A program made the translations under genes and the position numbers. Below the pieces are notes generated by a model. It ran no database searches, had not been told where the DNA came from, and was given only the letters and a program-made list of their open reading frames with translations. From Escherichia coli (GTDB lineage: Bacteria > Pseudomonadota > Gammaproteobacteria > Enterobacterales > Enterobacteriaceae): a DNA stretch of 64,000 nt. Shown piece by piece: positions 53,637 to 59,096 of this stretch (position 1 is its first letter; every line of letters begins with the position of its first letter). Location of the stretch: the NCBI RefSeq assembly GCF_003334305.1, contig NZ_QOWS01000005.1, one strand, 5' to 3'.

Positions 53637-53661
53637 GACTTGAGGAAGATATTACGGAGAT

Positions 53662-53687
53662 GTCAGGCTCTGTGATCAGAGCCTGAC
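53662..53687. terminator. Hairpin between the GH1 gene and marB
   Basis: Inverted repeat gtcaggctctg/cagagcctgac with tgat loop. Confidence 0.55.
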
Positions 53688-53692
53688 AATAA

Positions 53693-53911
53693 CTACATAG
53701 CGTGTTGATTATAATAGGGCACGCCGAGCGCATCCGACTTATCACTGCCAGTACCCATGTGATTTAAATCAAACGGTGGTTGTTCCTGCGATGGGGGAAC
53801 AACCACGACATTGGCACAAGAAGTAACAACTGGCTGCGTGGTTTGTTCCGCAACGCCCTGCGCGGAAAAGAGAATAAGCGCAGCTGCTATTGCGGATGAA
53901 AGTGGTTTCAT
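53693..53911 (-). CDS. marB: Multiple antibiotic resistance protein MarB
   Basis: 72 aa ORF MKPLSSAIAAALILFSAQGVA. Confidence 0.9.
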   Translation of the reverse strand: MKPLSSAIAAALILFSAQGVAEQTTQPVVTSCANVVVVPPSQEQPPFDLNHMGTGSDKSDALGVPYYNQHAM

Positions 53912-54991: not shown

Positions 54992-55657
54992 ATGTTAGAT
55001 TTGTTTAAAGCAATTGGCCTGGGGCTGGTGGTGTTACTGCCGTTAGCTAACCCATTAACAACTGTCGCGTTATTTCTTGGCCTGGCAGGCAACATGAACA
55101 GTGCCGAACGTAATCGTCAGTCGTTGATGGCCTCGGTGTACGTATTTGCCATCATGATGGTGGCGTATTACGCCGGGCAACTGGTGATGGATACATTTGG
55201 CATTTCGATTCCCGGTCTGCGAATTGCAGGCGGCTTAATCGTCGCGTTTATCGGTTTTCGGATGCTCTTTCCGCAACAGAAAGCGATTGATTCACCGGAG
55301 GCGAAAAGCAAGTCGGAAGAGCTGGAAGATGAACCCAGTGCCAATATTGCCTTTGTGCCGCTAGCAATGCCAAGTACCGCTGGTCCGGGAACCATAGCGA
55401 TGATTATTAGCTCGGCGTCCACAGTGCGTCAGAGTTCAACCTTCGCTGATTGGGTACTGATGGTTGCGCCGCCGCTGATCTTTTTCCTGGTGGCGGTTAT
55501 TTTGTGGGGAAGCCTACGCAGCTCCGGCGCAATTATGCGGCTGGTGGGCAAGGGTGGCATTGAAGCGATCTCCCGTCTGATGGGATTCCTGCTGGTATGT
55601 ATGGGTGTGCAGTTTATTATTAACGGCATCCTGGAAATCATTAAAACGTACCATTAA
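54992..55657 (+). CDS. marC: Inner membrane protein MarC
   Basis: 221 aa polytopic ORF divergent from marRAB. Confidence 0.9.
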
Positions 55658-55681: not shown

Positions 55682-56872
55682 CTATTGCGTCTGTTCTTCG
55701 AGTGTCACTGGCCAGCGGCGAAATATAATGATTGACCAAATTAACGCGGCAAAAGCAGGCACCGCGCCCACATAACCAATCATCGACATTGACCAGTGCA
55801 AACTCACCTGATTACCTACCAACGCACCCGCCCCGATTCCAATATTAAATATGCCGGAGAATAGCGCCATCGCGACGTCGGTAGCATCTGGTGCCAGCGC
55901 CAGCACTTTAACCTGCATACCAAGCCCGATGATCATCATCGCGATCCCCCAGAAAATACTCAGCACCCCGAGGTGTATTTCACTGTTCGCCGCAGGTAAC
56001 AGCAATGCCAGGCACACCAGCAACAGCGCAATCGCCGTACTCACCAACGCAGACGCATACTGATTACCCAGTTTACCGAAAATCACGCTGCCAATAATGC
56101 CCGCACCACCGAGTAATAACAGTAATGCCGTGGCAAAGTTGGCGCTGAATCCCGCAATGTTTTGTACAAAAGGCTCGATATAGCTGTATGCCGTGTAATG
56201 GGCGGTGACAACCACCACAGTTAACAAATAAATGCTCATCAATGCCGGGCGGCGGAACAATAGCGGGAGGCTTTTCAATGAACCGGAATGCTCACTGGGC
56301 AGTAAGGGAAGTAACTTAATCAGGCACAAAAGGGTGATAAGCGCCCCAATACCAATCGCGAAGAAGGTCATTCGCCAACCGAAATACTGGCCCACAATGC
56401 GCCCGAGAGGTAAACCTAAGACCATCGCCAGTGCTGTACCGGTGGCAATTAAACTCAATGCCTGTGCTCGCTTCCCGGCCGGAGCCATACGGATCGCCAG
56501 AGACGCCGTAATCGACCAGAAAATCGCATGTGCAAAAGCCACACCAATGCGACTGATCACCAGAACGGTAAAGCTCCACGACAAAAACGACAGTACGTGG
56601 CTGGCAATAAACACCACAAACAGGCAGATCAGTAATTTGCGCCGTTCAACCTGACTGGTCATTAACATAAAAGGCAATGACATTAGCGCTACTACCCATG
56701 CGTAAATGGTCAACATGATGCCGACCTGAGCGGTTTGCATGTGAAAACTTTGCGCAATGTCAGAGAGCAGGCCAACAGGGACAAATTCGGTGGTGTTGAA
56801 GATGAAGGCGGCGACTGCCAGCGTAACGACCCGTAGCCACGCCACTTTGCGGGAAACAGTGTTTGTTGTCAT
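55682..56872 (-). CDS. sotB: MFS sugar efflux transporter SotB (YdeA)
   Basis: 396 aa 12-TM ORF. Confidence 0.85.
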
Positions 56873-57021
56873 AACAGATTATCGGGTGAGTTGCGAAAAA
56901 GTGATGAAATGATCTTAAAACGGTTAATGATGTGAATACAATGCATTTGTGATCTGGATCGCGTTTTCCGTTTCTCTGACGCTGATTCTTTCACGCGTCA
57001 GAGAGTCGGTAACATCACGGT

Positions 57022-58137
57022 TTAATGACGTTCAGGGAGGTCTGGCGTTTTGGAGGTTGCGGGTATAGGTGGTCTGACAGGGGAGCGAGGCCTGTTTTTC
57101 ACCAGGTCTTCGTGAGTAACTTTTGGCGGCGTTTCATTTTTTACAAAAAGTTTGAGGGTCCTGCGCGCCATATGTTTGATAATTTTATCATCACTTAATG
57201 ATGCTGGCATCAACACGTCATTCAAATCACTTTCATTGGGATTCATAAATTGGTGATAGTGCAATAACATATTGGCGAAAAATAAAAACAAGTCCTGAAA
57301 ATGAGGAGATTCTTGTTCTGCTAAAAGGGATAAAAAGCAGATGCAGACTTCGGGTAGTACATGTTTGTTAGAACCTAATGAATCCATCAGGCTTTGCAAT
57401 AAATCCTCTTTTAATTCGCTGTCCGTTATGTCGAGAATGGCGGTGTTCAAGTTAGGATCTTTATTGACGAACCATCTGTGAACCTCAGAGTTATTCCATA
57501 ATCGGGGGAGTATGACAAAATTACCGCGAGAGATAAAATTCAGGACAAGCAAATCAAACTGGCGTAAGTAATCTGCAGCGGTATGGTGATCCGGAGGCAG
57601 GGGTTCAATATGTGGTGTATGCGCTCTTTTGATGGGAGCGCCAGGGTTGATCATCGGAAATTGTTCAATAAAATCATTCAGAAACAGAAAGGGCACACGC
57701 TCGACGCCGGTCTGAAATACGCGCCCCATAGTGACAGGCTTTGGGTTGGGAGCGCAAAAAATATTAATTTCTCCATCATGGCGAAAATTATCTAAATAAA
57801 TAGGGCTTAAATTTATTACTACCTGAAATTCAATATTTTCTTTGTGTCTTCCATTCTTGACGGGATAAGTGAGTTTAAACTGAACCTTTTCATTGTATAG
57901 CGTGTCGTTACCCCGGAAAGAAGTCCTCTGAATATATGATAAGTTATCAAGGTTATTAAATATCTTTTTTGTGGCTGAGTTGATGTTTAAAGACGTGCGC
58001 CACTCTTCATCACATATTATGGTACTGAGTGCATCAATAAAATCCTTTAAAACTTCTTTTACCTGAGGTGCAATATTACGAGCGGGAAAATCATCAGGAA
58101 GAGATATATAATTGCTGATGCTTACTGGCGTAACCAT
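57022..58137 (-). CDS. yneK: Uncharacterised protein YneK
   Basis: 371 aa ORF at the conserved position. Confidence 0.8.
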   Translation of the reverse strand: MVTPVSISNYISLPDDFPARNIAPQVKEVLKDFIDALSTIICDEEWRTSLNINSATKKIFNNLDNLSYIQRTSFRGNDTLYNEKVQFKLTYPVKNGRHKENIEFQVVINLSPIYLDNFRHDGEINIFCAPNPKPVTMGRVFQTGVERVPFLFLNDFIEQFPMINPGAPIKRAHTPHIEPLPPDHHTAADYLRQFDLLVLNFISRGNFVILPRLWNNSEVHRWFVNKDPNLNTAILDITDSELKEDLLQSLMDSLGSNKHVLPEVCICFLSLLAEQESPHFQDLFLFFANMLLHYHQFMNPNESDLNDVLMPASLSDDKIIKHMARRTLKLFVKNETPPKVTHEDLVKNRPRSPVRPPIPATSKTPDLPERH

Positions 58138-58214
58138 ATTTGCCCCATATAGTCATAAGTCATCGGAACATCACTATATAGGGCATTTGAGCTGCAAGAA
58201 CTATCAAAAATAGC

Positions 58215-59096
58215 TCATTGGTAACCCTGTTTTGCCGAGTCAGGCACATCCAGTAGTTGAATAAATGCCTCAAGCGGACGCGTTTTCGCACCACGACGCC
58301 AGACCAGCCAGGTTGTTAACCAACGCCATTGCTCAGCTAACGGCCACGCTTCAACCTGGTGATGCCCCGGCATACTTTCCAGCATAGAGCGTGGAATAAG
58401 CGCAATGCCTGCTCCTGCGACCACACAGGCCAACATCCCGTGATACGACTCCATCTCGTGAATAGTTCCCGGAGCGGCACCGTCAGCATGAAACCAGCTC
58501 TCGAAGTGGCGACGATACGAACAATTGGCGCGGAAGGCATAAATGTTACTGCCGTTAACCTGACTGGCGCGGATTACTGGCGCATGACCTTGTGGCGTGA
58601 CGATCATCAGCTCCTCGCGGTATACCGGTATCCCGTCAATGGCAGTATGGTTAATGGGCCCATCAATAAATGCCGCATTCAGTTTTCCCTCCAGCACTCC
58701 TTCCAGCATAGTGCCGGAAGGGCCGGTGGAAAGTGAAAACTGAATTTTGGGATAACGATGGTTGAATTCCGCCAGCGTGGCCGGAATGCGCACTGCTGCG
58801 GTGCTTTCCAGCGAACCAAGAGAAAATAAACCTTGCGGCTCATCGCCAGCGACAACGCTCCGCGCTTCATCCACTAACGCGAGAATTTGTTGGCTATAGC
58901 GTAAAAAGTTATGCCCGGCAGGAGAGAGACGTAAACGCTGATTCTCGCGAATAAACAGATCTACCCCCAGTTCTGTTTCCAGCTGGCGTAGACGGGTAGT
59001 GAGATTCGACGGCACGCGATGCACTATTGCTGCTGCCTGGGTTATGCTGCCAGCTTCGGCAACCGCGTTGAACATCTCCAGTTGTGTCAGATCCAT
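58215..59096 (-). CDS. yneJ: LysR-family transcriptional regulator YneJ
   Basis: 293 aa ORF with N-terminal HTH; divergent from sad. Confidence 0.85.

Follow-up and report, generated by a model that had tools for sequence, protein, structure and literature searches.

A conserved stem-loop downstream of the orphan gene yneK in Escherichia coli, a candidate RNA 3'-end element

The spacer between the orphan gene yneK and the exporter gene sotB (ydeA) in Escherichia coli contains a perfect inverted repeat that folds into a stable stem-loop. Among the loci compared, the repeat is confined to lineages that carry yneK, its arms are conserved while the sequence between and around them changes, and the RNA on either side of it has more C than G. 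We propose, with about an even chance of being right, that this repeat is a stem-loop of the yneK 3' untranslated region, which serves as a pause site and as an exonuclease block in combination with Rho-dependent termination ahead of the sotB promoter. Hypothetically, transcription out of yneK would be ended by Rho, loaded on RNA that is very rich in C and poor in G near the end of the gene, and the hairpin would be the site at which RNA polymerase pauses. After termination, the same hairpin would be the block that stops the 3'-to-5' exonucleases PNPase and RNase II, leaving the yneK mRNA with a 3' end that is defined and protected and lies shortly before the sotB promoter. The sequences themselves show the fold, the linkage to yneK, the conserved arms and the flanking composition; it is the dependence on Rho, the exact 3' end and the stabilizing effect that we infer.

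Position and fold of the repeat

The window, by which we mean the whole 64-kb stretch of DNA analyzed, is a segment of the E. coli chromosome at the mar locus, in reversed orientation relative to K-12. Next to marC (54992-55657, + strand), three genes lie on the - strand: sotB/ydeA (55682..56872), the gene downstream of the repeat, which encodes an MFS arabinose exporter; yneK (57022..58137), an orphan ORF of 371 amino acids with 40% GC, of which the hairpin is the 3'-flanking structure; and ptrR/yneJ (58215-59096). The arms of the repeat (56973-56982 and 56995-57004) are perfect reverse complements separated by a 12-nt spacer (56983..56994) that differs among alleles. The sotB-side arm reads TCTCTGACGC on the + strand and becomes the 3' arm, GCGUCAGAGA, in yneK-sense RNA, and the yneK-side arm reads GCGTCAGAGA on the + strand and becomes the 5' arm, UCUCUGACGC. 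This core lies inside an extended, imperfect hairpin (56965..57012, - strand) with 18-nt arms that are 83% complementary and that add outer CCG/CGG pairs. The corresponding positions in K-12 MG1655 are about 1616888-1616935 for the extended hairpin and 1616896-1616927 for the core, and 211 bases around the repeat are identical to that genome except for one base inside yneK.

A 10-bp perfect repeat with a 12-nt loop had been reported at these positions in the first-pass annotation, and the sequence confirms the stem, the loop and the coordinates. The same annotation had the repeat straddling the yneK stop codon, which is wrong: the TAA occupies 57022..57024 (57024-57022 in the direction of the gene) and is outside the repeat, which lies wholly within the 149-bp yneK-sotB spacer, 17-18 nt downstream of the stop. 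The structure that truly straddles the yneK stop is a weak 8-bp hairpin with two G.U pairs (57011-57032, - strand), which forms in yneK-sense RNA only and holds the UAA in its loop.

As RNA, the 32-nt hairpin folds at -18.4 kcal/mol from the - strand (yneK sense) and at -19.3 kcal/mol from the + strand, with a z-score of about -6 relative to shuffled sequences. Including the outer pairs, the yneK-sense hairpin reaches about -24 kcal/mol, and it is kept in both the MFE and the centroid fold of a 248-nt context. Six of the ten arm pairs are G-C, so that the stem is only moderately rich in G+C. The loop is strictly 12 nt long, and in predicted folds it shrinks to 5-9 nt through inner pairs that depend on the allele; folding of the K-12-type allele, for example, adds three pairs and a bulge and leaves a loop of 5 nt.

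Chance alone is an unlikely source for such a structure. Perfect stems of at least 10 bp with a loop of 3-20 nt number 10 in the window versus 1.08 +/- 1.09 in dinucleotide-shuffled sequence (the analytic expectation is 1.1 per 64 kb), and the expectation for a single 149-bp spacer is roughly 0.003. Two other perfect hairpins in the window, with stems of 12 bp (53661-53688) and 11 bp (53776-53806), have no T-run after them on the + strand. The first of them starts 25 nt past the end of a 481-aa ORF (53636) and has no T-run on the - strand either; both may belong to the same class of hairpins lacking a U-tract.

Neither strand has a T-run after the stem of the yneK hairpin: the sequence that follows is GTCGGTAACATCACG on the + strand and AACGGAAAACGCGAT on the - strand, and a U run (at least about 5 of 8) is absent from the tail in the yneK sense (AACGGAAAACG) as well as from the antisense tail (GTCGGTAACAT). 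A scan of positions 56500-57500 for the terminator consensus gave 0 matches. The earlier judgment that this is not a classical intrinsic terminator can therefore be upheld, and because the U-tract is missing, the hairpin cannot release RNA polymerase alone. An Rfam scan at a permissive E-value returned only chance-level matches to eukaryotic snoRNAs and miRNAs.

Paired sequences are also found at the other end of yneK. Directly upstream of its ATG is a second inverted repeat (58141-58185, - strand), with 16-nt arms that are 88% complementary and a 13-nt loop, which in sense RNA pairs a GGGG Shine-Dalgarno-like run. This repeat is kept in divergent E. coli haplotypes, in which a C-to-U change preserves a G.U pair, and it may serve yneK as an operator or in the control of translation. 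A small hairpin, GAGCTAT-N5-ATAGTTC (58198-58217, - strand), overlaps the stop codon of ptrR (TGA, 58217-58215) and is conserved in E. coli and E. albertii.

Conservation of the arms

Of 5,426 complete E. coli genomes, 5,418 have a match to a 301-bp query that spans the repeat, with a median of one place per genome. Our census of the 48-nt hairpin region places all 5,418 of these genomes in identity classes (4,300 + 1,118) and is based on reading representatives of each class, so that rare arm variants are possible. The allele of the window recurs unchanged in 1,992 genomes. Three changes distinguish another 1,525, all of them in the loop (GTGAAAG to GGAACAG) in the 3 genomes read, and one or two changes distinguish 767, located in the 5' flank or the loop in every subclass sampled (O157, Combat11I9, EM10-18-28, MLI106K1). 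In a divergent haplotype of 16 genomes (RMDEC465, N96) the innermost pair, pair 10, is broken, and an A-to-G change in the flank makes a new outer C-G pair, so that ten contiguous pairs are kept. The class of 1,118 genomes combines the RMDEC465-type haplotype with one C-to-T change in the sense-strand arm, which produces a G.U wobble in yneK-sense RNA and an A.C mismatch in antisense RNA. We take this class to be the B2-type allele; yneK is largely deleted in both of its genomes whose annotation was read. In the yneK sense, the folding energies of all alleles lie between -18 and -24 kcal/mol.

These alleles bear on the question of which strand matters. It is conceivable that the functional strand is the + strand, and that the hairpin forms in an antisense or divergent short RNA made from a promoter-like site (-35 at 56915, -10 ending at 56942). 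That site is a sigma-70-like match 30 nt upstream of the repeat, and the hairpin is equally stable in this direction. However, promoter matches of this quality are at chance level (3 found versus 1.6 expected), and the B2 substitution, as an A.C mismatch, drops the stability on this strand to -14.7 kcal/mol. No U-tract follows the hairpin here, and no antisense 3' end is listed at this position by Adams 2021. We consider an antisense role highly improbable.

The same repeat is found in E. albertii, where all of the alleles read (L045, L094-L098) have the form TCTCTGACG-N14-CGTCAGAGA. Both 9-nt arms are exact and the total length is the same, 5 of the 14 central positions differ, and there is a 9-nt insertion directly 5' of the stem. 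The yneK segment as a whole is 74.8% identical between the two species. Across all alleles, 3 of 20 arm sites are variable versus 35 of 58 sites in the loop and flanks (Fisher p = 6e-4). As far as these sequences go, the nine outer pairs are essentially invariant in the 5,418 E. coli genomes and in E. albertii, the loop and flanks vary freely, and the arms are under selective constraint.

A skeptical reading is that the hairpin is a relic without current function, which arrived with a horizontally acquired yneK segment, for instance as a decayed terminator minus its U-tract, and which has persisted because there have been too little time and too few changes for 20 nt to diverge between E. coli and E. 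albertii. The gene itself lends some weight to this idea, as yneK is a low-GC orphan and is frequently pseudogenized. YneK has no Pfam domain, its relatives among 5.8 billion proteins come only from E. coli, Shigella and E. albertii, and its identity between E. coli and E. albertii is 68%, versus 95% for SotB. The reading frame is interrupted by a stop codon in O157, shifted in B1-type strains and disrupted by an IS66-family element in strain M8, and a deletion of about 1 kb affects about 1,100 B2-type genomes. Because yneK is so often a pseudogene, selection for stabilizing its mRNA is not obviously strong. A relic would also fit the lack of a mapped yneK 3' end in two public datasets, and the statistics leave it some room. 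Within E. coli alone, the contrast between arm and non-arm sites is marginal (2/20 versus 19/58, p = 0.08), and in the comparison with E. albertii paired, perfectly conserved 9-mers at the arm spacing occur at 21 of 1,322 positions, an empirical frequency of 1.6% that is not overwhelming. Neutral persistence nevertheless sits poorly with arms that are invariant over about 25% divergence, when the 12-14 nt between them and both flanks have changed heavily. It also sits poorly with the manner of the changes: the loss of pair 10 in one haplotype is matched by a new outer pair, the sole arm substitution is a transition that preserves a wobble pair, and stability is alike in all alleles. We regard a relic as unlikely, although it deserves to be taken seriously.

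Linkage to yneK and the sotB control region

We compared 80 sotB loci from different species, and the repeat is present only in E. coli, counting one E. coli-type contig, and in E. albertii, which are the only lineages with yneK. The contig (locus L007, SMXE01000224.1) is part of a metagenome-assembled genome named 'Caldithrix sp.'; it has the same repeat and a SotB 100% identical to that of the window, and is almost certainly E. coli contamination or the product of mis-binning. Both yneK and the repeat are missing from the Escherichia lineages L008-L011 (including E. whittamii), which we take to be the Escherichia cryptic clades, and from Salmonella enterica subsp. arizonae (L024), all of which have ptrR directly upstream of sotB. 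A Citrobacter locus (L012) similarly has neither the repeat nor yneK-like sequence upstream of sotB. When these loci are aligned to the E. coli sotB upstream region, the alignment stops at window positions 56953-56974, the edge of the repeat, and where ptrR adjoins sotB it restarts inside ptrR, at 58238-58261. The repeat is the last feature of a yneK-specific segment of about 1.26 kb with 40% G+C, versus 51-54% in its neighbors. In terms of these alignments, the repeat belongs with yneK and not with sotB. Conservation in close relatives had been named in the first-pass annotation as one check on the repeat, and the answer is split: the repeat is kept in every lineage that bears yneK, but is absent from the relatives that lack it.

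Other structures occupy the corresponding position in some of these relatives. In Citrobacter L012, the hairpin CCGGTCAGT-N7-ACTGACCGG and the T-run behind it make up a canonical terminator at the matching site, a point in favor of a 3'-end role for the yneK hairpin. In Escherichia sp. MOD1-EC7003 (L011, 2345-2395), which is without yneK, an unrelated imperfect hairpin, GTTGCAC...GTACAAC, fills this place, bordered by the ptrR stop on one side and by the conserved block upstream of sotB on the other. Hairpins of one kind or another may recur ahead of the sotB promoter. Derivation of the yneK hairpin from the ancestral ptrR 3' end of the clades lacking yneK was considered and rejected, as the alignment is not consistently better than shuffles (p = 0.03-0.56).

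The coincidence of the indel boundary with the edge of the repeat would be explained if the boundary were functional at the level of DNA. The hairpin would then mark the end of the yneK segment as a signal for recombination or insertion, used by a hairpin-recognizing recombinase with attC-like or IS200/IS605-like logic, and yneK would be an orphan-gene cassette, bounded by the hairpin, that entered E. coli and E. albertii between ptrR and the sotB promoter. The repeat does lie exactly at one edge of the yneK-specific indel, and at 40% GC the composition of the segment is foreign. However, there is a single copy per genome, the neighbors are ptrR, yneK and sotB only, with no adjacent integrase or transposase, and the other end of the segment has no matching direct or inverted terminal repeat. 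Furthermore, homologues of yneK that would point to a mobile cassette are absent outside Escherichia, and no match to an R'/R'' core site was found by eye. To a recombination signal we therefore assign very little credence.

Conservation cannot separate an RNA hairpin from a DNA palindrome, because there is no true double-sided compensatory substitution among the alleles. The first-pass annotation had offered both, suggesting either an RNA processing or stability element or a protein-binding palindrome. The latter would act as duplex DNA: a dimeric regulator would occupy it about 85 bp upstream of the predicted sotB promoter, or the bound protein would be one that acts on yneK. The geometry of the repeat is suitable, in that the half-sites are 9-10 bp long with centers 22 bp, or two helical turns, apart. 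It is also the arm sequence itself, not merely its complementarity, that is conserved; the length of 32 bp is constant although the spacer sequence is variable; and the repeat is upstream of the predicted sotB -35/-10, beside a CRP-like site. On the other hand, Salmonella, Citrobacter and the cryptic clades retain the sotB upstream region as far as about -95 but lack the palindrome, and the one-pair shift of the stem in the RMDEC465/B2 haplotype alters the register of the half-sites. The 64-kb window and E. coli genomes at large yielded no further copy of the palindrome, half-sites are not enriched in the window, and we found no literature report of a factor that binds the yneK-ydeA spacer or of an RNA end within it. 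To our knowledge, none of the matS, GntR, PurR, CRP or LysR-type motifs fits the arms. SELEX peaks for NtrC, RpoS and RpoH fall in the yneJ-yneK spacer or inside yneK, a sigma-54 site is inside ydeA, and in a PurR/FNR paper ydeA appears merely as a ydeA::kan strain. Overall, we think it rather improbable that the repeat is an operator. The 3'-end or stability element is the better supported of the two earlier suggestions, as the repeat travels with yneK, has conserved arms and lies between flanks with more C than G.

The CRP-like site, TGTGATCTGGATCGCG (56949-56964), is about 85 bp upstream of the sotB start. Better CRP palindromes are found at the equivalent position in Citrobacter (CGTGATCTTAATCACG) and Salmonella (TGTGAGCTGCATCTCA), and ydeA is among the predicted CRP targets in a genomic-SELEX study (PMC3105977).

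Flanking composition and comparison with known elements

The proposal that the hairpin is a 3'-end element working with Rho draws on the composition of the RNA around it. A 78-nt tract (57019..57096, - strand) contains 34 C and 10 G, a C/G ratio of 3.4, with regularly spaced C. It covers the last 75 nt or so of yneK and ends 14 nt before the stem, and windows of 78 nt with a C/G ratio of at least 3 make up 0.06-0.2% of this 64 kb. By composition, this tract is rut-like; it is also coding sequence and encodes a proline-rich tail. Downstream of the hairpin, the next 100 nt (56873..56972, - strand) contain 25 C and 12 G, and these are also the promoter and regulatory region of sotB, which is conserved in other genera.

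Several features count against the 3'-end model. No RNA 3' end is listed at this position in two public E. coli 3'-end datasets (Adams 2021; TRS 2023), an absence that may be due to low expression of yneK. The loop is 12 nt long, the inner pairs differ by allele, and the C-rich tract lies upstream of the hairpin.

If confirmed, the model would show where the yneK transcript ends and how far upstream the sotB/ydeA control region of E. coli extends, and it would provide one more protective hairpin without a U-tract on a horizontally acquired orphan gene, the type of gene that is policed by Rho. Beyond annotation its importance is small. One minor use is in the study of orphan-gene gain and loss, since the hairpin comes and goes with yneK and makes a sharp boundary beside the conserved CRP-type sotB promoter region.

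Comparison with known systems helps to place the yneK hairpin. Integron attC sites and the ends of IS200-IS605 elements differ from it, as it has no adjacent recombinase, no multiple copies and no matching structure at the far end. Like REP/BIME sequences, it is an extragenic palindrome 3' of a gene and could block 3' exonucleases, but it is single-copy per genome, lacks the REP consensus and matches no Rfam or repeat family. It shares with intrinsic terminators a stable hairpin of moderate GC, placed where one gene ends and ahead of the promoter of the next. In contrast to them, it has no U-tract, and its A-rich run, read in the yneK sense, is on the wrong (3') side. The strict loop of 12 nt exceeds the typical 3-8 nt, and the loops of 5-9 nt in the predicted folds of individual alleles overlap that range.

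The likeness to elements that work with Rho is closer. The motif used by RhoTermPredict, a 78-nt RUT with more C than G and a downstream hairpin as pause site (PMC6407284), resembles the 78-nt tract with a C/G ratio of 3.4 and a hairpin within 14 nt at the end of yneK, although that motif is very unspecific, with 23,930 predictions in K-12 (PMC6407284). Rho-dependent transcripts of E. coli have 3' ends immediately after stable stem-loops that have no U-rich tails and no A-tracts, that are followed by a mild enrichment of C over G, and that protect against PNPase and RNase II (Dar & Sorek 2018, PMC6061677). The yneK stem-loop differs from this class in its strict 12-nt loop and in the location of C-rich sequence, as the rut sites of that class are downstream and the strongest C-rich tract of yneK is upstream, at the end of the ORF. 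In other respects the two agree: the yneK stem-loop is stable and comes soon after the stop codon, it has neither a U-rich tail nor an upstream A-tract, C exceeds G in the 100 nt that follow it, and yneK is a foreign-looking gene, low in GC and an orphan, for which we assume low expression. Most likely, the hairpin is an ordinary and previously unannotated example of this described kind of 3'-end hairpin.
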